A DNA stretch of 46,023 nt from Oligoflexales bacterium (lineage in GTDB: Bacteria; Bdellovibrionota_B; Oligoflexia; Oligoflexales; Bog-1112): NCBI GenBank assembly GCA_045105515.1, contig JBGCDR010000029.1:1-46023 (forward strand), written 5' to 3'. Positions 5,470 to 46,023 of this stretch are shown in pieces (positions within the stretch are counted from its first letter, which is position 1; the number at the start of each line of letters is the position of its first letter). A program made the translations under genes and the position numbers. Under the pieces are notes generated by a model. The model did no database searches, was not told the origin of the DNA, and saw only the letters and a list, made by a program, of their open reading frames with translations.

Positions 5470-6435
5470 ATGAAAAAGGGTATCATATTAGGAGTTGTAA
5501 TAGCGACCGTTGCAGCTTTTTTTGTCTTTAGAAATAAGCCAGAGAATGAAGAGAAGGCTCCCCAGGCTGAAAATCTAGATGATAAAGCACAAGAATATAA
5601 TGTGGTTAGTCAGGCTAAATGGGATGAGAGTAAGCCAAGGCAAAATGGTTTGGAAGCAAACTCTAAGAATACGAAAACAAACTCAAAGTTGGACGATCGT
5701 TCTCTAAGTCCTGTCGATAAGGCGATGGCAAAGTTTGTTGATTCTTCAGGCCTGGAGAAAAAGCTGTTGAGCATGAACTCAATGTTGGAGCAGCAGATTG
5801 AAATGCTAATGTCTGATCAGACAATGAGTGACGAAGAACGAGCAAGCTTTCTTAAGGCATTTAAGGCGAATTTTGATGGAAAGAGATTGCTTGAAGAGTA
5901 TACAAATAGTATGAAGTTGAAGTATTCTGAAAAGGAATTAAAGGAGTTAGCTGAAATTTACGAAGATCCGAGTGTACAAAGGTTTAATCAGCTCAATAAC
6001 GATATGGTGGATCCAGCAAACATGCAGGACTATCAGCAAGAATTCGTCGAATATATGAAAAATCTCGATCAGAACCCAGATAACTCTGAGCGTACGAAGC
6101 TCTTTCAAGATCTTGATAAAGCCATGAACACTTCCGGTCAAGCAGTTAAGCTGACTATGGAACTTTTCAACATGTACGCTGAAAAGGATGGTGAAGCAGC
6201 ATTGAGTCCTGAGGAAGCAGGTGGTTTTCAAGCTGCTATTGCAGATCAAGTGCAAAAGGGATTGATGTTTACCTTGAGAGATTCGTCTGATGGCGAGGTT
6301 AAGGACCTTGGTGACAAGCTTAATAATCCCATGGTACGTAACTCCAATGATGTTCTGGTTGACACATTTACTGGGCCTTTAAAGAAAGTTATGTCAGCAC
6401 TTGAGAATAATAATAAACCCGAGCCTCAGTCTTAA
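5470..6435 (+). CDS. Membrane-anchored helical hypothetical protein (DUF2059-like)
   Basis: N-terminal TM anchor, acidic helical body, 'YSEKELKELAEIYEDP' resembles the DUF2059 motif; strong SD AAGAGG. Confidence 0.6.
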   Translation: MKKGIILGVVIATVAAFFVFRNKPENEEKAPQAENLDDKAQEYNVVSQAKWDESKPRQNGLEANSKNTKTNSKLDDRSLSPVDKAMAKFVDSSGLEKKLLSMNSMLEQQIEMLMSDQTMSDEERASFLKAFKANFDGKRLLEEYTNSMKLKYSEKELKELAEIYEDPSVQRFNQLNNDMVDPANMQDYQQEFVEYMKNLDQNPDNSERTKLFQDLDKAMNTSGQAVKLTMELFNMYAEKDGEAALSPEEAGGFQAAIADQVQKGLMFTLRDSSDGEVKDLGDKLNNPMVRNSNDVLVDTFTGPLKKVMSALENNNKPEPQS

Positions 6436-8322: not shown

Positions 8323-8862
8323 ATGTTAGAAAAGAATTATGCGAAAGAAGTCGAAGAAGCAACGAAAGATGTAGATTTTTCCAAAGAATCGTACCAGATT
8401 GAGTTGGAAACTAATAAAGGTAAGATCTTAATTGACCTCTATCCAGATATTGCCCCCAAGCACTGCAAAAATATGATTGGTTTAGCCAAAGTTGGTTTTT
8501 ACGACAATCTATTATTTCATCGTGTCATAGCAGGATTTGTGATTCAAGGTGGCTGTCCTCGTGGTACGGGCACCGGTGGACCTGGATATCAAGTTGATGC
8601 TGAATTTAATGAGCGTAAGCATGAACCAGGTGTGCTCTCAATGGCAAGAGCACAAGATCCCAACTCTGCTGGATCACAGTTTTTTCTTTGTTTAAATGAT
8701 GTGCCGCACCTTGATAATCAGTATACTGTATTTGGTAAAACGGCTGATCAAGAAAGTTTAGATGTGGTACTAGAGATTGGTAGAGCTGAGACCGGTGCCC
8801 AAGATAAACCTCGTGAAGAATTGCTTATTCAGAAAGCAAGTGTCGTTACTAAAGCTACCTAA
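8323..8862 (+). CDS. Cyclophilin-type peptidyl-prolyl cis-trans isomerase
   Basis: FHRVIAGFVIQGG, LSMARAQDPNSAGSQFF, HLDNQYTVFG. Confidence 0.95.
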   Translation: MLEKNYAKEVEEATKDVDFSKESYQIELETNKGKILIDLYPDIAPKHCKNMIGLAKVGFYDNLLFHRVIAGFVIQGGCPRGTGTGGPGYQVDAEFNERKHEPGVLSMARAQDPNSAGSQFFLCLNDVPHLDNQYTVFGKTADQESLDVVLEIGRAETGAQDKPREELLIQKASVVTKAT

Positions 8863-10294
8863 CTGTGGTAAGCGTTTCTTGCTTTAGTTGCGAAGAGACA
8901 ATAGCTTTGGCTGATTTTAATATTTCTTTTTTTATCTCTTTTTTTTGTTCATCCTTGTAGAGTGAGTTTACAATATAGCTTTTAGTTTTGAACGTATACA
9001 AATCAGCTAACCACATAGAAAATTTTCCACTAAGCAAACGTGACTCCAGCTCTAGGTATGTTTCAAAAAATCTTACTGGCCTTTTCTGAGCGTAGCTAGG
9101 TACCCAAATTTTACAAAACACTTCAGGATGTTTTTTGCTTAGGTAAACTGCTGCAAAGTACTCTCTCAAATATGCGCGATGTTCATCAAAATACCGTTCG
9201 ACGTCGTAGTCTGACCTTGCTTTACCCATGATTTCAAATAGTTCATTAGATTTCCTATCAAGTTCAAGAAATTTTACCAACTTCATGCTATGGCTTCTTC
9301 GTGTGACAGTTTCTTTAAGATTGTAAGGATTATCATTTTGCATTTTCGATAATTCCGCAAAAATTTGATCAAAACCAAGAATTTTGTTTGCCTTTAACTT
9401 AGGAAGTAGATTGTCAGTTTCGAGGCTACTTAAGTATTGTTTTTTTATTTGGTCTTCGAAATCATAAAGTTCTGCCTCAGCTTGGTCCCTTTGCATGTGG
9501 AAACTTTGCCATTTAGAAACGGATTGTGAAAATAGTTGATTTAATCTACGCAGTTTGAGGCTTTTGGCATGAGTCAGCTCGTGTATGATCTTCGGAACTA
9601 ATAATGGGGTTGCTTCTTCTGGATTGACACAGATGCGATGTCGCTTGTCCTGATAATCAGCTGTGGCTCCGAAAAATGATTTACTGCCAGCAGGTTGAAA
9701 GGAAACTTGTTCCAATATGTTTAATACTTGGCGAGATGAGGAATGTCCTGACAGTTGGCGTCTGATTTCGACCTTAAGGGGATTAATAAAGGTGTCAAAA
9801 TTTGAATCTTTGCCTTGAATGCACCTTTCGTTTCGCCCTATTGCTAAGCTCGAGCGGAGCTGAGGGCTATTGAATTTTAGCCATAGTTTAAAGAGGCTAT
9901 TTTTTTTCATCGAAGAAGATGAAGAGTATCCATGCAGCTCATTAAGATAATTGGCCAAAATTTCGCTTTTTTCCTGCAATCTAGGATCTTTTGCAGAAAG
10001 ACGTATAAATGCATCGATATGCTTTATCGTCTTAGCTTTTCGTTTAGGGAATTGCTGCTCTAATTCATTTCGGAGCCTTTTCAATTCAAGATTACGGTAA
10101 TCTTCCCCTAGTTGTCCGATTGAGAAGGTGTTTTGTTCTAAACATTGCTGGAAATTTGTGTCAGAATGAATGCGCTCGGCTTTGCCCAAGTTAGATAAAA
10201 TCAAAAATAAAGCTGCAATGTGGGTGTAAACCCTAATGCGTTTTAGTTGCATAGCCCCTGTTCCCAGAAAGTAAGTTTTTATGATTTCTATCAT
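8855..10294 (-). CDS. Secreted hypothetical protein with an HEXXH motif (possible zincin)
   Basis: Signal-like hydrophobic segment, IIHELTH, downstream DEHRAY; true start may be the second Met. Confidence 0.6.
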   Translation of the reverse strand: MIEIIKTYFLGTGAMQLKRIRVYTHIAALFLILSNLGKAERIHSDTNFQQCLEQNTFSIGQLGEDYRNLELKRLRNELEQQFPKRKAKTIKHIDAFIRLSAKDPRLQEKSEILANYLNELHGYSSSSSMKKNSLFKLWLKFNSPQLRSSLAIGRNERCIQGKDSNFDTFINPLKVEIRRQLSGHSSSRQVLNILEQVSFQPAGSKSFFGATADYQDKRHRICVNPEEATPLLVPKIIHELTHAKSLKLRRLNQLFSQSVSKWQSFHMQRDQAEAELYDFEDQIKKQYLSSLETDNLLPKLKANKILGFDQIFAELSKMQNDNPYNLKETVTRRSHSMKLVKFLELDRKSNELFEIMGKARSDYDVERYFDEHRAYLREYFAAVYLSKKHPEVFCKIWVPSYAQKRPVRFFETYLELESRLLSGKFSMWLADLYTFKTKSYIVNSLYKDEQKKEIKKEILKSAKAIVSSQLKQETLTTVR

Positions 10295-17279: not shown

Positions 17280-18476
17280 CTAGAATACTTGCGATAAATA
17301 TAGGCTTGCTCCCTGCTCCCGAACGGTCCCTTGTACATAGACTTGCGAACCTTTGCCTGTCAGCTCGCTAATATAGGCGTCTTTGAAAAAGATGACAAGC
17401 ATCTCTCTATTTGATTTGTCGCGCATTGCAATGCTGCATTTGATCCTACATTCATCTAGATCGCTCAGCTTGAAGCTGAGTGGGCCAACTGTAACAAGCT
17501 GGTTGTCATACTTCTTTAGCGCCGAAATTTCACGAACCAGTGAGTCTTCAGATACTCCCTTTGGCACACTACTACGAAATGGGTTGAGGCTAATGGATTG
17601 CTTTTGTCTACGTGGCTTAGAATTATTTGTATTCTTGCGTATATTGTGAGCGTCGAGGAGATTCACATCTTTCTTGTCTTCCTTTGTTTTTGGTTTTATC
17701 GCCCGTCGAGGTTTGAGTTCATGGTGCTCTACCGGGTCGCTACTTTGAAATTTGAAAAATTCTATATCACCTCGAATCATTAGGTATAATACGCCGCAGG
17801 CTACCAACAGTAAAAAACATAGTCCCAAGATAATGATTTGCTGTTGGTTTTGCCCGAAGCTCATACCAGAAGCATAAGCAGTAGATTGCTGAGGCATAGT
17901 TCTAGTTTTAGGGGATTTTTTACGCTTGTTCTTGTCCCCCTTGCTCTTTTTAGAAAGCTGTTTGTAGGTCTTTACAAACTTTGCAACCGATATTTCACCC
18001 TTAGCATTTGCCTTACCAACTCGGTATTGGTTGTTGATTTTTTTGCTTGTATATAAGTGGGTTATTTCCTGAGCAGAAAGCATGTTGCTTTTTCCATTTT
18101 TTTCATCAATTAAGAAAAACTTTTTAACTTTATTGCGTCTTTCCTTATTGTCCTTTGGGGTGAGGGCTTCAACACTAGGGTCAGCTAAACCTAAAAAGGA
18201 AGCGTCTTCAGCAAGTTCAGGTGGAGGAGCTTGAACGGCAACAACTTTGGTCACTTGGCCCGGAGCTTGGCGTGGTTCTGATTTCTCTGACACTTCATCA
18301 GCTGTGTCAAATATAGCATCGATTTCTATAAGCTCTTGTTTTTGCTGAGATCCTTCTTCGCTAACAGTGACAAAAGGATCTATCAGACCTTTGCGTAAGG
18401 CTTTTCTGATTTGGCCCGCATCCCAAGGACCTCTTAAGGTCCCATCATCATTGTGAATAAGCCACTTTCTTGCCAA
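17280..18476 (-). CDS. Bitopic membrane protein with N-terminal GYF_2-like domain(s) and a possible C-terminal OB-like fold
   Basis: W-x9-GPW..QIR..L..G.I pattern, a second degenerate copy, one TM helix, beta-rich C-terminus; TTG start with GGAG SD. Confidence 0.65.
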   Translation of the reverse strand: MARKWLIHNDDGTLRGPWDAGQIRKALRKGLIDPFVTVSEEGSQQKQELIEIDAIFDTADEVSEKSEPRQAPGQVTKVVAVQAPPPELAEDASFLGLADPSVEALTPKDNKERRNKVKKFFLIDEKNGKSNMLSAQEITHLYTSKKINNQYRVGKANAKGEISVAKFVKTYKQLSKKSKGDKNKRKKSPKTRTMPQQSTAYASGMSFGQNQQQIIILGLCFLLLVACGVLYLMIRGDIEFFKFQSSDPVEHHELKPRRAIKPKTKEDKKDVNLLDAHNIRKNTNNSKPRRQKQSISLNPFRSSVPKGVSEDSLVREISALKKYDNQLVTVGPLSFKLSDLDECRIKCSIAMRDKSNREMLVIFFKDAYISELTGKGSQVYVQGTVREQGASLYLSQVF

Positions 18477-31637: not shown

Positions 31638-32615
31638 ATGATGTTTAGGTTATCAATATTTACCCTGGTATTGTACGGCTGTGGCTTTGGTAATTTAGAT
31701 GCTGGACAACCCAAATCTAAAGAATTTACTGTTTCCTCTCAAGAAGAAAATTTAACACGATCCAAACAGTTAGACTCTACCGAAGTCGGTAATGGTAGGA
31801 CTGAGAGTATTTTATCTGAGGAACAATCAAGGTCAGATTTTGATAAGCTTTCAAGTAATAATCCTATTGAGTCCACAGAAATTGGTAATGGTAATAAACC
31901 CGATCTTGAAAACAGTGTTGATACTCCTGAAGAGGGATCTAATTCTGGGAAAGACTCAGCTATTGTGACTGCAGCTTTTCTTACTTCCTGTGTGTTGTCG
32001 AGTAGTAAAGTGGACTGTAATATTTCTCATGGAGAGAAATACGATTTCCAGAATTTGATAGTTTACGACCTTAATAAAAATAAAGTTCCTGCAGAAAGCG
32101 TGAATTATAACTTAGAAAATGATCAGTTGGAAATTTCGGTTGAAGGTGATTCTTTAATTGGCAGTCTAGAAGTAGAGCAAACTCCAGTGGACCTCTCGAT
32201 GAATGTAGCAGATCAAGGGATGAGAGATATTTTAATTGGTACTTATAACAGCCTGCTATGGGGTGATTTGGAAATTAGGTTTTCAGGTAATGGTGTTTTA
32301 ATAGTTTATATAATTGGGGAGAAAACCATTGGTTTTGCCCAAGGTAGCTTTAACGAAGACAATGGAATTGTCACAGGTAAGTGGTGCGAGCGGTCTGTCA
32401 AGAAAGATGGAAAAATAGATAACAAGAAACTCTCAGGATCTGGACAGCTTGAATTCCATTTCGAGTACGGAGAGAACCAGCAGGTGCAAGCCGAAGGTCA
32501 GTGGAATTCTGGTGAAGGTACTAATTGGCATAATGACTGGAATTTAAACAAGATCGGTGATCGTAGCAACTATGAAGAATACTTCGATCAGTTTGCAGAA
32601 TATAGTTGTGATTAA
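31638..32615 (+). CDS. Hypothetical lipoprotein
   Basis: Lipobox-like LYGC, low-complexity linker with a repeated STE(V/I)GNG, beta-rich Trp/Gly C-terminal domain. Confidence 0.75.
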   Translation: MMFRLSIFTLVLYGCGFGNLDAGQPKSKEFTVSSQEENLTRSKQLDSTEVGNGRTESILSEEQSRSDFDKLSSNNPIESTEIGNGNKPDLENSVDTPEEGSNSGKDSAIVTAAFLTSCVLSSSKVDCNISHGEKYDFQNLIVYDLNKNKVPAESVNYNLENDQLEISVEGDSLIGSLEVEQTPVDLSMNVADQGMRDILIGTYNSLLWGDLEIRFSGNGVLIVYIIGEKTIGFAQGSFNEDNGIVTGKWCERSVKKDGKIDNKKLSGSGQLEFHFEYGENQQVQAEGQWNSGEGTNWHNDWNLNKIGDRSNYEEYFDQFAEYSCD

Positions 32616-36074: not shown

Positions 36075-37247
36075 ATGAATGACGCTTTAATTGATAGGTT
36101 TTCAATTTACATTGATCGGCTTTTTAATCGATTCTACTGGCTCTTTTTTGGAGTTATAGGAGCAATTATATTTGGAGGCAATAAGCATTTGCATGGCACT
36201 GAGAGTAAAACTACTAAGCGACTAATTGAAGATGCTGAACTAATCGAAAGACAGTTTGAAAACTTAGTACAGAGTCGTAGTAAGATCTCAGAACAATATA
36301 ATTTACTGAAAAAAGGTCTCAATCAAAAAGTTATCGCTTTAAAAAAAGTTAAAGAATCATTGAATTCAAGAGAAGAAAAATATCGACGAGCCGAAATAGG
36401 GACTAAAGAACTTTCAGGGCGGATTAAAAAATTAGAATTAATCACATTTTCTCACACCGTCTTAGTTTTATCTCTCGAACAGTTGCTTGCACGGCACCAA
36501 GGTAGTCTTAAGAAACTTGAAGTTCAATTGCCACAAACAAAATCTGCGTTTGGAAAAATAGCTGTAGAGCAAAGTGATTATGCTAAGGAGCTAAGAAATT
36601 GGGTTGCTGCTTCAGCATTGCTAGATAAAGATATAGACCAAAAAATCAAAAAATTAAAAGCACTTGCAAAATCTATGTATGAAAAACAAGAATTACCTAA
36701 AAAAATTACTCCAATGAGTATTCTCTATGAAATAAAAACATCAGAGGTAGAATTGCTTGAGACAGATCTTATTTATGCGATGGAGAAGATTTCACAGCTG
36801 ATATATTTTACAGATGTAAGTTACAAGGAAATTTCAATTTTGCAGCAAAATCTTTCATACGGAAATAAAAAATATGAAGAATTAAACAAAGAGATCAATA
36901 CTCTCGATGAGCAATTATTCAAAGTAAGGAAGTCGAAGATAGATTTAGCCAACAAATTAGCGATGCTCAAGGGAAAACTACATGCGACTCAGGAACAGAA
37001 AGCTTACCATCAGCAGGGTACTGCTTATCTGGAAAAACAGTTAAATATGAAAACGCAGGAAATAGCTAGCTTAGCAGTGAATTTTAGTCTTGTTGACAGT
37101 CAGCAAAATTTGCTAGAAGAAAAAATTAAGACATTAAAAATAAAGATTGAATCTAGCTCAAGCATTGCTGACATAGTTATTAGCATTGTTGCTAAGGTTG
37201 AAAGGGAAATGATAAAAAAGCTGCCATACAGGAATAACTTACTTTAA
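36075..37247 (+). CDS. Membrane-anchored long coiled-coil protein
   Basis: Single N-terminal hydrophobic helix followed by ~340 aa of heptad-rich L/K/E/Q sequence. Confidence 0.7.
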   Translation: MNDALIDRFSIYIDRLFNRFYWLFFGVIGAIIFGGNKHLHGTESKTTKRLIEDAELIERQFENLVQSRSKISEQYNLLKKGLNQKVIALKKVKESLNSREEKYRRAEIGTKELSGRIKKLELITFSHTVLVLSLEQLLARHQGSLKKLEVQLPQTKSAFGKIAVEQSDYAKELRNWVAASALLDKDIDQKIKKLKALAKSMYEKQELPKKITPMSILYEIKTSEVELLETDLIYAMEKISQLIYFTDVSYKEISILQQNLSYGNKKYEELNKEINTLDEQLFKVRKSKIDLANKLAMLKGKLHATQEQKAYHQQGTAYLEKQLNMKTQEIASLAVNFSLVDSQQNLLEEKIKTLKIKIESSSSIADIVISIVAKVEREMIKKLPYRNNLL

Positions 37248-38185: not shown

Positions 38186-38725
38186 TTGGAAATGGAAATT
38201 GATAGAATATTAAAAAAGATATCTAGATACCTTCTTGAATATCGGCGAAAAAATGAAATCACTCAATATGAAATGGCAAATGTGATAGGACTTTCAATCT
38301 CACGGTACTCAGAAATTGAAAGAAATATGGGCCATGCAGGCTTGGCACTTAAAACGCTGCTTATAATTGCTGAACTAGAACATAATTCAATTTCGGAGTT
38401 TTTTCAAACTCTAGAAAACGAAAAGCCAAGCAGTAAGCTGAAGATCAATGAAGACCCTCTTGTAAAACACTTTGATGAACTTAATAAACCGATCAAGATG
38501 GCTTTTTTGAAACGGGTTCGTAAAAATAATCCTAGGCACAGAACCATCCCAAATAAATTGAAGTGGTCTATAGATCTTATGAATTTGATGTTGGATGGGA
38601 AGCCTGAACAATTGGAAGAAATGGAACTCATGATCCTCAATTACTACATCAACCAAATAAGTAAAAATGCAGATAATAAAAAAGCTGTGAAAGGTCGAGT
38701 TAGTAAACTGATCAAAAATATGTAG
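38186..38725 (+). CDS. XRE-family helix-turn-helix transcriptional regulator
   Basis: LLEYRRKNEITQYEMANVIGLSISRYSEIER; start may be ATG 38192. Confidence 0.8.
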   Translation: MEMEIDRILKKISRYLLEYRRKNEITQYEMANVIGLSISRYSEIERNMGHAGLALKTLLIIAELEHNSISEFFQTLENEKPSSKLKINEDPLVKHFDELNKPIKMAFLKRVRKNNPRHRTIPNKLKWSIDLMNLMLDGKPEQLEEMELMILNYYINQISKNADNKKAVKGRVSKLIKNM

Positions 38726-38778: not shown

Positions 38779-39102
38779 CTTAAGGAGGGGTACTATGAAT
38801 ACATAAGTATTTGCAAACTCAGGGCCAACTTTAAATGTTGAGATATATTAATAATATTAAATGGATAGATGGTCCTTGAGCTTGAATTAGCTTTTTCTGG
38901 CATTTACAGTTGTAAATTATTTGTGCACATGCATGTACGACTCCTTCCGGGAGCTAGAGCTTGATGACCATGAAGGATATATTTTGCCAAGGCAAGCGAC
39001 ACTCTAATTTAACAGGAAAATTTGCTCAAATTAATCAAATCAGTTAATCTTCAAGAAACTACTTTATGCAAGCAATGTTCAATACTCCGTGAGGATCAGG
39101 AA

Positions 39103-39477
39103 ATGAAGCTTAATTCAAATTTGGTTAATGATATAAAAAAGCGAGCACAAGAGTTGGTTCCATACACCAATATTGAAAAGACAAAGAAAGACCTTGAGAA
39201 GATCCTAAAAGCGCGTTACCAAAAATTCGAGCCAAGTTTAGTCAGTATGTATAAGGGTTTTAGGAAAAATGCAGAACGGTATGGGGTTCCTATGAATACG
39301 CTGGAAGCCAAAATACATGATTCTTATGAATTGACTGTTTATCGCCTAGAAAAGGTTGGTAAATTGATTCCTTTTTTAGAGAAAAACCAAAAGTCTCAGC
39401 ATAAGTCAAGTAAGCCTACCGCAAAAAAGAAAGCACGGGCCAAAAGCCAGTCAAAAGCCGCTGCAAGCAAGGCTTAA
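39103..39477 (+). CDS. Small basic hypothetical protein with a K/A/S-rich tail
   Basis: ATG 39103 after GAGG/AGGA; amphipathic helices, tail KPTAKKKARAKSQSKAAASKA. Confidence 0.65.
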   Translation: MKLNSNLVNDIKKRAQELVPYTNIEKTKKDLEKILKARYQKFEPSLVSMYKGFRKNAERYGVPMNTLEAKIHDSYELTVYRLEKVGKLIPFLEKNQKSQHKSSKPTAKKKARAKSQSKAAASKA

Positions 39478-41172: not shown

Positions 41173-42528
41173 GTGAGTGTACATAGAAGATTTTTGTTAT
41201 TAATAATCAGTATATGGATGTTTGGAGCATGCTCCCCCACAAATAGTCGTGACGCTTCATCGGCAAAGCAAGGAGGAGCTGACGAACCCATAGGGCTTGG
41301 TAGCGATTCCGGTTCTACGCAAGAGCAACCAGAAATAGATCAAAGGTTTGTTCCTTTAGAAAAAGTAAGCAGTTTTGATTTGGATGATCAAAAATTTAGT
41401 GTGGTTGCACTAGCTATCGGTAGTAAAACTTTTATGAATTCAGAATCTTCAGTTGTAATTTATAAGCTCCCAAGAGACGCTGATTATGTGGAAATCCTTA
41501 GATGTAAACACGATACAATTTTGAGCGGCGGGGTTAATCCAATCAGTTTGGTTGAATTAGAGATATCTGGCTTGAGTGATTCTGAAAAAGCTCAGGCTTA
41601 CCGGCAAAATAACTATTTTAGAGTAGCTGAAGATAGTAAAGGTTGTGAGTTAGTTACAGATGGACACTTGGGAGAGAACTTTATTGATAGTTTTAGTCCT
41701 TCTGGTGCTTTTCGTTACCTTGTGCGTTCATGTGTAGCTCCGGGCCGATTGATAGATAAGGAAAGACTTACCTCACGCAATTGTTCTCTACGTGTGGCAA
41801 TTTCGAGCGAAGTCAACTATACCAACGCTCGTAAGGCTAAAGAGCAGCAAGCTTTAAAACTAACATCAGTTTATGCAGCAAGAATAGATGCGACTACCAC
41901 GGCAATGCGTGCTATTGCGGAGGATGGTAACGAAGCTCTTGAAGAATGTATGGAGCGCAACCGCCAAAGAATTATAGACAAAACTATCCGTGACGCTTGG
42001 ATTACCATGGCATCAGCTGTAGTTGAGGTAGGAATTGAGCTAGTTACGATTAGCCCAGGACCTAGCGCCGGTGGTAAAACTAGCAAGCTTCAGTACTATA
42101 CGGCCGGAAGAAGAAGTGGAGATGCAGGTCAGCTTAGCTTTTCAAGAAACCTAGATCGCTTGCAGCTTTTAGGAGCTACCCAGGGCTACCTCCTGTCAGA
42201 TACTTTTATTAAGCTTTTTGGTAGTTCTCATGATATGGAAAGGTCTTGTGCCCGACATGACCGCTTGATAAACGATTACTTTATTCTTGAAAATTCACTC
42301 ATAGATTACGCCTTTCAGTTCCACCATTATATGGAAGTTGCGCGCTTGGCACAGATAAGCCAACTGGTAGTAGACGGAGTCGAAGTACGGGTACCTTCCG
42401 TAGAGGACTATCGCAACTATGAAGAGGAGGAACTTCCACCTCCTCCTGAGAGCATTGATGATGAAGAATTAGAGAGCAATGATGACGAAGAGAATGAAGA
42501 AGATACCACAGGCTCAGAAGATGCTTAA
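41173..42528 (+). CDS. Hypothetical lipoprotein A (paralogue of the next gene)
   Basis: Lipobox-like FGAC, six further Cys shared with the next gene, acidic C-terminal tail. Confidence 0.8.
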   Translation: MSVHRRFLLLIISIWMFGACSPTNSRDASSAKQGGADEPIGLGSDSGSTQEQPEIDQRFVPLEKVSSFDLDDQKFSVVALAIGSKTFMNSESSVVIYKLPRDADYVEILRCKHDTILSGGVNPISLVELEISGLSDSEKAQAYRQNNYFRVAEDSKGCELVTDGHLGENFIDSFSPSGAFRYLVRSCVAPGRLIDKERLTSRNCSLRVAISSEVNYTNARKAKEQQALKLTSVYAARIDATTTAMRAIAEDGNEALEECMERNRQRIIDKTIRDAWITMASAVVEVGIELVTISPGPSAGGKTSKLQYYTAGRRSGDAGQLSFSRNLDRLQLLGATQGYLLSDTFIKLFGSSHDMERSCARHDRLINDYFILENSLIDYAFQFHHYMEVARLAQISQLVVDGVEVRVPSVEDYRNYEEEELPPPPESIDDEELESNDDEENEEDTTGSEDA

Positions 42529-42549
42529 GGCTCTGACAAAGGAAGTGCT

Positions 42550-43896
42550 ATGAATCACAAGTTTGCAATTATAGTGACTCATAAACCAAAGGTTTTTAGA
42601 GTACTTTTTATTTTAATATCTACGCTGATACTGAGTTGTAACCCTCAATCAAGTAGCAGTAATCAGCAGAGGGATGTGAGAAATACTACGGGGTTTGGGT
42701 CAGATTCTGATGAAAATACTGCAGCTACAGATGACAACGAAAACAGTGGTACTAGCTCTGCAGGTGGCACTAGAATTTATCTCTCTCCATTTGAGGCTAG
42801 GGTAGCAGTTGCGAAGGAGGTTACCTTAGGCGAATCATTTGTTGTTGAAGATTTTAAGGTACCACGTCTTAGATTTACTTATGACAAAGCAGATTTCGTC
42901 CAGGTTTTAAGGTGTGTAGCAAGCCGTAAGATGGAAACTCTCACAGGGGAAGACGTGCGTCATTTAGCTGGACGACCTGGTCAGCAATCAGCATTGCAGT
43001 GGGCTTGGACTACGGCAGTTGAAGATCGACGTAGATGTAAATTTGTGGGAGAAAAAATAGTTAGCCCTGATTTTGCAGATTTAGCTGCTCCGAAAGGCGA
43101 GTACTATTATGTGATTAACCCCTGCGTCTTGAGTGAAAATTCAGTCCTTAAAAAGGAAGCTTGTAGCTTTAATCTTGTACTTACTTATCCAGTTACTGTC
43201 ACTAATACCTTCAATGATGAGGTGAAGACGAAAAATTTTGAGCTTTCTAAAGCAGAAGGCTCACTAAATGCAAGGCTTGTAGCAGCACAACATTTGGCTA
43301 AGAAAATTGAGATTCATTTGACCGCTTGTGAAAATATGGTGGCAAAAGATAAAGCTCTTAATGACTTTAAGAAAGGCATAACTCAGCTCGGATTCATGGT
43401 TGTTGGCGCTGTGATTGGTGGTGCATTGCTGGGGCCTTTGAGTGGTCCAAATGGTGCGGTTATGCTGGGTCAGATGTTTGGAACCCTGGGAGCGAATTAT
43501 TTTTATACCAGCGTTTTAGGCTTACCTTCAGATGTTTTCAATGAATGCATCGATCCCACTGTGGTAGAAACTACCGAAGAGCAGCGAAAAGAAGCTGCTG
43601 AGATAGATAAACGGTTCAATCCCAACCCAGCGAAAACAGGCGAGGTTGCTCAGGCTAACGATCGGGGCCAAAGGGGCAAGTATGAAGAAGAGTACCAAGT
43701 GCAGGCACTTACGAAGCAGTTACGGGATATGCTTGCTGAAGATGGGCCCATAGCTAAAGACACTGCATGGGTGCAGGAGGTTCTAGACGATCTAAAGCTT
43801 CTCGATGTTCAGGTTATAAATTTAGATTACAAACAGGTTCAGGCTACAACAGGTATAGATATTAATGATATTTCTACTTATCCATCAGGGCCCTAG
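42550..43896 (+). CDS. Hypothetical lipoprotein B with a glycine-zipper hydrophobic hairpin
   Basis: Lipobox-like ILSC, GFMVVGAVIGGALLGPLSGPNGAVMLGQMFGTLG. Confidence 0.8.
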   Translation: MNHKFAIIVTHKPKVFRVLFILISTLILSCNPQSSSSNQQRDVRNTTGFGSDSDENTAATDDNENSGTSSAGGTRIYLSPFEARVAVAKEVTLGESFVVEDFKVPRLRFTYDKADFVQVLRCVASRKMETLTGEDVRHLAGRPGQQSALQWAWTTAVEDRRRCKFVGEKIVSPDFADLAAPKGEYYYVINPCVLSENSVLKKEACSFNLVLTYPVTVTNTFNDEVKTKNFELSKAEGSLNARLVAAQHLAKKIEIHLTACENMVAKDKALNDFKKGITQLGFMVVGAVIGGALLGPLSGPNGAVMLGQMFGTLGANYFYTSVLGLPSDVFNECIDPTVVETTEEQRKEAAEIDKRFNPNPAKTGEVAQANDRGQRGKYEEEYQVQALTKQLRDMLAEDGPIAKDTAWVQEVLDDLKLLDVQVINLDYKQVQATTGIDINDISTYPSGP

Positions 43897-44185
43897 GGTT
43901 AAAAATTTCCTGGCATTCTTCCATAATTCTCTCGTCATCAACTACTCTGCCTAATCCATAGGTTTCACAGCTTTCTAATATTTTATCAAACAAAACATCA
44001 CCTTTGTGCTCGTCTGCTACCAAACAAACTGCGATTATAGCAAGTTCACTCTGCTTGTGCTCAGGTTTTGCTAAGACTTTATAGCGACTTTGAAGCTTTA
44101 CACATAAGCTTGTAGCACCCCGGGTCCAGTCTTTAGCTGGGTAGCAATCCTCATCGAAAACAACCTTCATTGCAGCAATAAGCAT
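43874..44185 (-). CDS. Small protein, DUF503/YlxP-like
   Basis: ATG 44185 after GGAG SD; ~103 aa alpha/beta pattern 'SLCVKLQSRYKV..SELAIIAVCLV'. Confidence 0.55.
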   Translation of the reverse strand: MLIAAMKVVFDEDCYPAKDWTRGATSLCVKLQSRYKVLAKPEHKQSELAIIAVCLVADEHKGDVLFDKILESCETYGLGRVVDDERIMEECQEIFNPRALMDK

Positions 44186-44266
44186 AAGATCTCCACGTCG
44201 TTCTATAACTATTAAAATCAATATTACTATTGCGCGGTTTTTCTCAGGCACGAATTTGGGCGCGGA

Positions 44267-44914: not shown

Positions 44915-45808
44915 CTAAGCAGATTCTTCGAACCCCTCTGGGGACTTGTAACCAAGGGCAGAATGTAGCCTAATTCGATTATAGTAGACTTCTACATATT
45001 CAAATATAGCAGATCGTGCCTGCTCATGACTTTCAAATATTTTTCCTCTAATCAGTTCTCGTTTTAGAGTACTAAAAAGACTTTCCGCATGAGCATTGTC
45101 AAAACAGTGATCTTTTCCAGTCATACTTTGCTTGTATCCAAGCCGTTTAAGCCTTCGTCTAAGTTTCTTTGCTTTATACTGACCACCCTTATCGCTATGA
45201 AATAGAGTCACTTTTTTTGTTGTTCGTTGATTGTGTGCCATCTTAAATGCTTCCAATACAAGATCTACCTTCATATTTTCTTTGAGTGACCAGCCAACAA
45301 TCCTTCTAGAAAACAGATCCATAACCGTACAAAGATAGAGCCAGCCATACCTAGTTCGAATATAGGTGATATCTGAAACCCAGATGTCCTCAACGCCTTT
45401 ACAGGAAGCATCTTTTGTAAGATTCGGGCTATCTTCAAGTGATGGATTTGGTATCGTAGTCCTTTTAGTCGCCTTCGGTACATAGCCTGCAATATCTATT
45501 ATTTTCATTTGTCTCTCCACTCTATTAATTGAAGGCTGAATACCCAAATTCGCCTCTCTTAGTGCAGCCGTTAGGCGACGACGGCCATAGGTTTCGCGAG
45601 AAGCTTCAAATATTGGAAGCAGATGGTCTTTTATTGTTTCATTTTCTTTTTTTCTCTTGCCTATTTTGCCGTTGAGCCATTCATAATAGCCAGATCGGGA
45701 TACTTCCATCGCTCTACACAGTACTGACACTGGGTAAACGGCCCATTCAGCTTTTATGAACTCAAACCGTCTTACTTTTGGCTCGCGAAGAAGACAGCCG
45801 CCTTTTTT
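44915..45808 (-). CDS. IS3 transposase OrfB (DDE), reached by -1 frameshift
   Basis: WVSDITYI, DLFSRRIVGW, FHSDKGGQY, DNAHAESLF, YYNRIRLHSALGY; -1 frame open from AAAAAAG at 45808-45802. Confidence 0.93.
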   Translation of the reverse strand, partial: KKGGCLLREPKVRRFEFIKAEWAVYPVSVLCRAMEVSRSGYYEWLNGKIGKRKKENETIKDHLLPIFEASRETYGRRRLTAALREANLGIQPSINRVERQMKIIDIAGYVPKATKRTTIPNPSLEDSPNLTKDASCKGVEDIWVSDITYIRTRYGWLYLCTVMDLFSRRIVGWSLKENMKVDLVLEAFKMAHNQRTTKKVTLFHSDKGGQYKAKKLRRRLKRLGYKQSMTGKDHCFDNAHAESLFSTLKRELIRGKIFESHEQARSAIFEYVEVYYNRIRLHSALGYKSPEGFEESA

Positions 45809-46023
45809 AAGATTTCGTTCTCCTGTCGAAGCTGTTTGAGTTCATCCTTGAGTAGCTTGTTCTCTTGCAGGGCATCAAGCCGGTTATTAGCATCCTCAGT
45901 AGCTTTTTGTTGGCCTATTTTAGCTCTCCATCCCGAAAGCTGGTTAATAGGCACTCCAAGCTCATCAGCGACGTCTCCGAGACTCACACCATCTTGGTAT
46001 GACATTTCTACTGCTCTTTTTTT
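45772..46023 (-). CDS. IS3 transposase OrfA (5'-truncated by the window edge)
   Basis: HTH VADELGV...W and leucine zipper LKQLRQENEILKKAAVFFA; frame runs off the window. Confidence 0.9.
   Translation of the reverse strand, partial: KKRAVEMSYQDGVSLGDVADELGVPINQLSGWRAKIGQQKATEDANNRLDALQENKLLKDELKQLRQENEILKKAAVFFASQK

Follow-up and report, generated by a model that had tools for sequence, protein, structure and literature searches.

Genes A and B, two adjacent genes in a 46,023-nucleotide stretch of the Oligoflexales bacterium assembly GCA_045105515.1 (contig JBGCDR010000029.1; the whole stretch is referred to as the window), encode paired, predicted lipoproteins that we tentatively read as subunits of a resident heteromeric lipoprotein complex or scaffold of the cell envelope, possibly one that spans the periplasm, and not as a released toxin. 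We give this reading close to, though not quite, an even chance. A preliminary description, made from the letters of the stretch, had linked the pair to bipartite alpha-pore-forming toxins and had presented it as a candidate two-component system. The architecture invites the toxin label, but the present analysis does not support it.

The two co-oriented open reading frames (ORFs) of about 450 amino acids (aa), seen in the preliminary description 21 nucleotides (nt) apart, measure 451 and 448 aa, and the 21-nt gap was recovered. The lipobox-like signals noted there were likewise found in both proteins:

41173..42528, + strand: gene A, the A-type subunit, a predicted lipoprotein of 451 aa (ORF with a GTG start)
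42529..42549, + strand: A–B spacer of 21 nt (from the ORF ends)
42550..43896, + strand: gene B, the B-type subunit, a predicted lipoprotein of 448 aa (ORF)
41173..41232, + strand: predicted signal peptide of A with the lipobox FGAC, ending at Cys20 (sequence, Cys conservation)
42550..42639, + strand: predicted signal peptide of B with the lipobox ILSC, ending at Cys30 (sequence, Cys conservation)

The A protein starts with MSVHRRFLLLIISIWMFGAC, and the signal of B ends with LFILISTLILSC. By the lipobox pattern rule for substrates of signal peptidase II, FGAC and ILSC, which come after basic and then hydrophobic stretches, have the layout of lipoprotein signals. In the deep alignments used throughout (98 A-type and 63 B-type sequences), the lipobox Cys is conserved in 93 and 58 sequences, respectively, and the residue preceding it is mostly G, A, or S. 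A and B are thus predicted to be exported, acylated, and lipid-anchored. The protein-database entry for A starts at Met16 (436 aa), a start with which the signal would be lost. As the A orthologues retain the hydrophobic stretch ahead of the lipobox Cys, and as an AGG lies seven bases upstream of the GTG, the GTG is the better start.

Judged by their sequences, A and B are true paralogues, as had been proposed from motifs aligned by eye. BLASTP aligned the N-terminal halves with 50.4 bits (E 5e-11; 53 of 234 positions identical, 23%), and this alignment includes the motifs in question; with the deep alignments, hhalign gave a probability of 99.9 and an E-value of 7e-32 over 193 columns. The two types are clearly separated: A scored 683 bits with the A-type and 31 bits with the B-type profile, and B scored 747 bits with the B-type and 53 bits with the A-type profile. 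When the assignment to a subfamily was made with a margin of 15 bits, 162 retrieved proteins fell into 104 A-type and 58 B-type members, and none was ambiguous. Orthologues are 33–62% identical for A and 42–61% for B.

The expectation that homologues occur as adjacent pairs was examined in 131 species genomes, which represent the class of the window and equally the whole phylum in the collection (Oligoflexales-type Bdellovibrionota). A/B matches were present in 47 of the 131 genomes, and in 32 of the 83 that are at least 90% complete. The 138 matches in these 47 genomes lie at 74 places, as 56 doublets, 4 triplets, and 14 singles, so that 60 of the 74 places have two or more adjacent co-oriented copies. 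Three of the triplets are split hits of one pair, and the fourth is an A-B-B array with B duplicated in tandem in a single genome (L041, G018:C179). One single (G046) turned out to be a pair in the fetched locus, and some of the other singles are at low contig coordinates (142 to 801), near a contig end. Three genomes with the pair (G046-G048) have assemblies of one contig each and probably represent isolates. At the level of fetched loci, a B-type gene follows directly downstream of the A-type gene in 34 of 35, and the exception stops at a contig end. Two of these loci represent one metagenome-assembled genome (MAG) fetched twice, leaving 33 distinct pairs. In the 34 loci, A and B overlap or are at most about 50 nt apart, with starts taken from the longest ORFs.

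All well-supported clades are common to the trees of A and B, which show two old pair lineages inside the family of the window. The window pair belongs to lineage 'a', and a second pair of the same genome, on contig C40, to lineage 'b'. This second, divergent pair (L006 8491-11172, minus strand) encodes proteins of 506 and 383 aa; in the A-type member, a true glycine-rich hairpin is interrupted by a long charged insertion. The pairwise identity matrices of A and B correlate with r 0.83, a value reached in 0 of 2000 permutations. Agreement is to be expected for linked genes when the genomes are related, and the result therefore shows an absence of partner swapping rather than contact. In addition, a natural A–B fusion of 772 aa was found in a single frame on a Logan contig (A profile at 58–273, B profile at 407–663), and a 523-aa partial of such a fusion is present in an NCBI Oligoflexales MAG. 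A search for longer fused forms (826–2355 aa) found none, which is weak evidence. The obligate pairing, together with the tree agreement and the fusion, suggests a heteromer, in line with the original idea.

The structure of A was predicted by AlphaFold2 (AF2) with 11 sequences, at a mean predicted local distance difference test (pLDDT) value of 66.6. Behind the signal peptide, the following parts were distinguished:

41233..41358, + strand: low-complexity tether of A, residues 21-62 (pLDDT below 50 for 19-59, poorly conserved columns)
41359..41823, + strand: fibronectin type III (FN3)-like beta-sandwich with a helical insert, residues 63-217 (AF2 pLDDT 67-91, mostly 74-90; FN3 matches)
41827..42357, + strand: helical hairpin rod, with helix 219-292, loop 293-322, and helices 323-348 and 353-395 (AF2; antiparallel coiled-coil matches over 217-403)
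41947..42249, + strand: clamp, bounded by the codons of C259 and C359, with the hydrophobic/amphipathic tip (residues 275-348) inside (Cys pair, hydrophobicity)
42358..42525, + strand: C-terminal tail with a PPPP motif and an acidic run (sequence; pLDDT below 50 for 410-451)

The N-terminal domain of A is modelled as an FN3-like, seven-strand beta-sandwich fold, which agrees with the FN3-like character read from its sequence before. Foldseek matched the beta domain best to the FN3 domains of IGF1R/insulin receptor (E 6.4e-4), and VIA-align superposed residues ~66-217 with FN3 domains of titin, IL-10R1, IL-22BP, and fibronectin at Z 8.7–9.1 (88–94 residues, root-mean-square deviation (rmsd) 2.0–2.6 Å). 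FN3 proteins were also among the matches in a viral structure library, the first at rank 5 with E 1.3e-3. At the sequence level, Pfam fn3 matched neither A nor B at E≤1. The helix 219-292 comprises 74 residues and is about 110 Å long, and the loop 293-322 is of low confidence. The VIA-align matches of the helical part include an SMC coiled coil (Z 10.9), colicin Ia (Z 10.0, rmsd 9.9 Å), and Snf7 (Z 9.8). As all of these remain below the VIA-align bar of about 13 for helical folds, we regard them as generic antiparallel hairpins.

For B, an AF2 model was made with 8 sequences. It shows helices 220-294 and 300-322 with a turn between them, followed by three C-terminal helices. As the model is poor in the N-terminal domain, the fold of this part is taken from A by homology. 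The parts of B are:

42775..43206, + strand: N-terminal domain, residues 76-219, homologous to the FN3-like domain of A (hhalign, invariant Cys)
43207..43374, + strand: long helix toward the tip, residues 220-275, carrying C260 (AF2 helix; pLDDT 72-83 over 221-260)
43375..43524, + strand: glycine-rich hydrophobic hairpin, residues 276-325, with the turn GPLSGPNG (hydrophobicity, uncharged run)
43546..43548, + strand: second clamp Cys, C333 (conserved in at least 90% of the 63 sequences)
43576..43848, + strand: C-terminal return helices, residues 343-433 (AF2 343-352, 365-395, and 400-433; pLDDT 74-83 over 381-410)

Within the hairpin, G276 is conserved at 90% or more, and the GPN turn is invariant among close orthologues.

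The six conserved Cys that had been counted beyond the lipobox were confirmed in both alignments. In A-type sequences, C111, C158, C187, C204, and C359 are invariant and C259 is conserved in at least 90%; in B-type sequences, C122, C163, C192, C205, and C260 are invariant, and C333 is the less strictly kept sixth. Given the lipobox Cys and these six conserved Cys, export into an oxidising compartment is expected. The far end of the rod is enclosed by the last pair, which is complete in 62 of 63 B-type sequences (spacing 58–82 residues) and in 95 of 98 A-type sequences (spacing 60–232).

The segment between the clamp Cys had been described as strongly hydrophobic in B and as weaker and amphipathic in A, and the Kyte–Doolittle (KD) values in a 19-residue window agree: for the proteins of the window, the maximum is 1.91 in B and 1.63 in A (at residue 275). 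Values of at least 1.2 are reached by 61 of 62 B-type and 80 of 95 A-type sequences, and values of at least 1.6 by 33 and 39, respectively. The longest run without D, E, K, or R has a median of 39 residues in the B-type (52 in B of the window; at least 20 in 59 of 62) and of 20 in the A-type (13 in A of the window). The tip is thus predicted to be of membrane-grade hydrophobicity, strongly so in B and more weakly, with amphipathic character, in A. Together with the AF2 model of A, the Cys-pair and charge-run counts bear out the earlier picture of long helices with a Cys-bracketed hydrophobic hairpin.

The designation 'two-component' held only in part: A and B are indeed paired, but the list of components was incomplete, as further genes are co-operonic with them in other genomes. 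Elsewhere in the phylum, in families other than that of the window, co-oriented lipoprotein genes without Pfam match, termed C, X, and Y, lie ahead of A-B, and in 16 of the 35 fetched loci A-B lies in one operon with X/Y/C. The plan of C comprises a lipobox, an ADYVE..C motif, ACV.P.R, two further Cys, and long helices with a Cys near each end. Its homology to A (hhalign probability 98.4, E 8.8e-15) marks C as a third paralogue of A/B. X is one gene or two (X1, X2), with a coiled-coil start and Cys-containing beta-rich domains that end in D-C, and Y is present in 4 loci. The gene orders seen were X1-X2-C-A-B, C-X1-X2-A-B, C-X-A-B, X-Y-C-A-B, and X-A-B. An X profile matched 42 of the 131 genomes, all of them within the 47 A/B genomes. 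The five A/B genomes without an X match are all four of family f12 (families are denoted f with a number, f1 being that of the window) and G038, whose A/B hit is weak (E 4.5e-4); in two fetched f12 loci, the gene at the X position is too divergent for the X profile. Conserved non-lipoprotein neighbours at A/B loci amounted to lineage-local synteny only (a nucleotide transporter gene in 5 f1 loci and an OmpA-domain gene in 4 f19 loci), plus generic histidine kinases. The OmpA-domain gene is small, of the peptidoglycan-binding type, and is encoded immediately behind B, in the opposite orientation (L010, L020, L038, and L040), which may be local synteny only. The genome of the window (G000) has two A-B pairs and, unlinked from these, two X-C modules:

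Contig C145 (L021 1984-3639 and 3655-4851): X-C module
Contig C177 (L022 5892-6791, 6806-7741, and 7723-9036): X1-X2-C module
Contigs C220 and C40:33989-35455: two extra X genes, the latter about 11 kb from the second A-B pair

In the envelope complex that we favour, A and B would be co-evolving subunits, and C as well as the Cys-rich lipoproteins X and sometimes Y, which are unrelated to A/B/C, would be further parts. Each of A, B, and C would be exported by its lipoprotein signal. A flexible tether would lead to an FN3-like head stapled by disulfides, and this to a helical hairpin that forms a rod of ~11 nm, with a hydrophobic, glycine-rich loop-hairpin at the far end whose base is clamped by the conserved Cys pair. 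The predicted disulfides are C259–C359 in A and C260–C333 in B, with two more in each head. The rods may associate side by side to form the heteromer. The uncharged 40–52-residue hairpin of B would be a true membrane hairpin of the producing cell and would most simply enter the inner membrane during Sec export as a stop-transfer/re-insertion pair, so that the stretches on either side of it would remain in the periplasm together with the two clamp Cys. At the other end of the protein, the lipid anchor may sit in the same or in the other envelope membrane, and the other one would be within reach because 11 nm of rod, the head, and a 40-residue tether separate anchor and hairpin.

Several points weigh against this picture. 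The AF2 model of B is poor (pLDDT 50.5) and unusable outside the helices. As the genomes behind the congruent trees and the co-occurrence are related, they do not count as independent samples. Co-folding of A(62-400) with B(75-448) on the deep alignments gave a score of 0.00, which is uninformative either way, and the case for A–B contact is a genetic one. The tip of A in the window need not cross a bilayer, since its uncharged run comprises only 13 residues and E285 and E289 are near-invariant among close orthologues. Finally, Asp at position +2 after the lipobox Cys, which is an inner-membrane retention signal in E. coli, is rare (2 of 58 B-type and 5 of 93 A-type sequences). This would fit sorting to the outer membrane, with which an inner-membrane hairpin sits uneasily unless the protein bridges both membranes.

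The rarity of Asp at +2 is also what would be expected if A and B were outer-membrane glycine-zipper lipoproteins of the SlyB/YfgH kind, with a hairpin that inserts from the periplasm and rings that stabilise lipid/protein nanodomains under envelope stress, an explanation that we consider quite unlikely. SlyB and YfgH are small proteins in which the hairpin lies beside the lipid anchor. They provide a precedent, being reported as outer-membrane residents that are predicted to oligomerise (bioRxiv 10.64898/2025.12.22.696046), and they share with A/B the combination of a lipobox and a glycine-rich, hydrophobic two-helix membrane hairpin in one polypeptide. Weak, compositional matches exist as well, to C19orf12-like in 4 of 63 B-type sequences (best E 1.8e-4) and to Gly-zipper_Omp (PF13488, E 0.0091) in 1 of 98 A-type sequences. 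However, no Pfam glycine-zipper family matched A or B of the window at E≤1, and the hairpin of A/B is about 250 residues away from the lipid anchor, separated from it by the tether, the FN3-like domain, and the long rod with its 8-nm helix. Moreover, this hairpin far exceeds theirs in hydrophobicity and has a Cys on either side, and the proteins occur in A/B/C/X sets that are obligately heteromeric.

The residence of the system in its lineage is a further part of the favoured reading. A citrate synthase gene lies upstream of A in divergent orientation, and the farther neighbours encode ribosomal protein S2, EF-Ts, a UMP kinase-type kinase, ribosome recycling factor, and an acyl-CoA dehydrogenase. 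The synteny of A-B is retained in a congener, and presence follows families (f1 15/15, f2 2/2, f12 4/4, f13 2/2, and f17 2/2). On account of these housekeeping neighbours, the synteny, and the distribution over families, the A/B system is resident rather than mobile and is vertically inherited.

A reading that we find doubtful, but for which the geometry speaks, is a contact-dependent attack, adhesion, or fusion apparatus, in which A and B would be surface lipoproteins, the FN3 heads or X would bind prey or host, and the tips would insert into the target membrane. As lipid anchor and hydrophobic tip lie at opposite ends, the proteins would be suited to bridge two membranes, and three paralogous hairpin subunits could bundle. 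A and B also evolve faster than citrate synthase (about 60% versus 79% identity to the same congener), and nucleotide transporters (TLC, PF03219), which are typical of host- or prey-dependent bacteria, are encoded in 15 of 15 f1 genomes, with 6 matches in that of the window. Yet such transporters are found in only 1 of 115 genomes of other families, and the A/B system also occurs in five families without a nucleotide transporter; with this distribution, the transporter does not track the A/B system. Furthermore, neither a signal nor a machinery for surface export is linked to the A/B genes, no immunity-like or secretion gene is conserved beside them, and the hairpin of B is hydrophobic enough to be captured in the inner membrane of the producer during Sec export. 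As a separate observation, an ATP/ADP-translocase (TLC) gene takes the position of citrate synthase as the divergent neighbour of A in five loci of the family of the window (G005:C477, G006:C43, G007:C2, G008:C6, and G016:C64).

The remaining surroundings of the pair are summarised here. Promoter- or terminator-like sites around A-B were no more frequent than in shuffled sequence. A 125-aa ORF on the minus strand (43874-44251), for which Pfam gave no match, shares 23 nt with the 3' end of B; a counterpart with 59% identity lies at the same position in the MAG of the congener (L005 5112-5447). An IS3-family transposase (44915-46023, minus strand; rve core and HTH_Tnp_1 ORF) is found 1 kb downstream of B at the contig end and is probably the reason for the contig break there. 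Upstream of citrate synthase, the plus strand encodes an XRE-type helix-turn-helix protein (38186-38725) and a small lysine-rich protein (39022-39477), the latter conserved in the congener (L005 386-760). Five further ORFs of the window, of 320–480 aa, are without a Pfam match at E≤1e-5 (5470-6435, 8855-10294, 17280-18476, 31638-32615, and 36075-37247).

That the family is not a named one, as surmised earlier, was corroborated by database searches. At E≤1, Pfam gave no match for A and only DUF6468 (E 0.14) and Transgly_assoc (E 0.73) for B. Neither NCBIfam, with respect to relevant matches, nor PADLOC returned anything for A, B, X, or C, and the deep A and B profiles found a signal-peptide match and coiled-coil noise only among PDB sequences. 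The ESM Atlas yielded no usable feature match for B and X (structural template modelling (TM) score at most 0.29). In the literature library searched, accessions of named family members were not mentioned, and searches on Oligoflexia lipoproteins and on Bdellovibrionota lipoproteins with coiled coil and FN3 found nothing on the family. A 90%-clustered protein collection contained 7 relatives of B and 10 of A, and a joint A+B profile matched 314 cluster representatives at E≤0.001 (285 at E≤1e-10) among 1.84 billion. The sequencing runs listed comprised three from DNA, which may be the source samples, and none from RNA. Beyond the 131 genomes, the family is known from metagenomic proteins without names; the few named relatives are called 'hypothetical protein' and come from Oligoflexales or loosely labelled MAGs, and the source names of a few clusters are Oligoflexales, Pseudobdellovibrionaceae, or again loosely labelled MAGs. 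Judged from the 131 genomes and these few source names, the family appears to be confined to the phylum of the window. It has no name, and its architecture is without a described counterpart. Membrane-hairpin lipoproteins and multi-paralogue rod assemblies are the known kinds with which it is best grouped.

If the favoured reading is correct, a conserved lipoprotein set of four or five members, unnamed in databases, is present in roughly one in three species of a single phylum. Its core would be three paralogous rods, each with an FN3-like head between a lipid anchor and a membrane hairpin that is clamped by Cys. Rods of 11 nm anchored at both ends could fix the spacing of membranes or reach a foreign membrane, and either role would represent a new building principle for the Gram-negative envelope. 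The cell biology of Oligoflexia-type Bdellovibrionota, which include host- or prey-dependent members, is almost unknown. A concrete and testable list of subunits follows from the strict pairing of A with B, from their natural fusion, and from the linkage to X and C.

Among known systems, the toxins of the ClyA class were compared first, as a secreted bipartite alpha-pore-forming toxin of the ClyA/YaxAB/XaxAB class had been the suggested model. YaxAB/XaxAB and AhlABC/Nhe/Hbl (PMC5935710, PMC6602965, and PMC6162564) resemble A/B in that their paralogous components are adjacent and differ in hydrophobicity. Further shared features are long helices and, at one end of an elongated molecule, a hydrophobic hairpin that is stronger in one component, and the tripartite toxins also have three paralogues, as does the present system once C is counted. 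Adjacent genes for two or three paralogous components, a feature of this class, were found here as well, with A followed by B in nearly all loci and C co-operonic in several genomes. The common frame of ClyA-like toxins is a five-helix bundle with a head or foot element between helices 4 and 5, according to PMC6162564. The A model, in contrast, consists of an FN3-like beta-sandwich head and three long helices in a helical hairpin and does not show such a bundle, and its helical matches were generic. A ClyA-family chain was absent among the 50 VIA-align matches listed for A, which does not by itself exclude the fold. The ClyA/Hbl-type Pfam families matched neither A nor B at E≤1 and none of the 161 members (A-type and B-type together) at E≤0.01. 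A and B further differ by their lipoprotein signals, which would leave both proteins lipid-anchored, by the six conserved Cys with the disulfide-type clamp, by membership in a four- to five-gene lipoprotein set that includes X/Y, and by vertical inheritance next to housekeeping genes across a phylum of environmental bacteria. We therefore consider a secreted toxin of this class hardly credible.

With FN3 domains such as those of titin, cytokine receptors, and phage tail fibres, A shares the fold of residues ~66-217, from which it departs by a helical insertion of ~45 residues and by four invariant Cys that are atypical of FN3.

Class I viral fusion proteins have internal fusion loops, and in the manner of an analogy, the Cys-bracketed hydrophobic loop at the tip of the A/B helical hairpin resembles these. 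A and B differ from them in being predicted bacterial lipoproteins without a sequence or fold match; the B profile aligned with paramyxovirus F0 over a coiled-coil/transmembrane stretch at E 0.019, which is not significant. By the same analogy, a six-helix bundle could arise from the three hairpin subunits A, B, and C. It is conceivable, though a long shot, that A/B/C form a trimer-of-hairpins rod that is lipid-anchored in the own outer membrane and whose clamped tips act like internal fusion loops in a second membrane. If this were true and the second membrane were that of prey or host, the system would be a bacterial, virus-like device for membrane fusion or entry, in a lineage that takes up nucleotides from its hosts. 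In a tamer variant, which is part of the envelope complex favoured here, the tips would sit in the inner membrane of the cell itself and the rods would form a periplasm-spanning staple.

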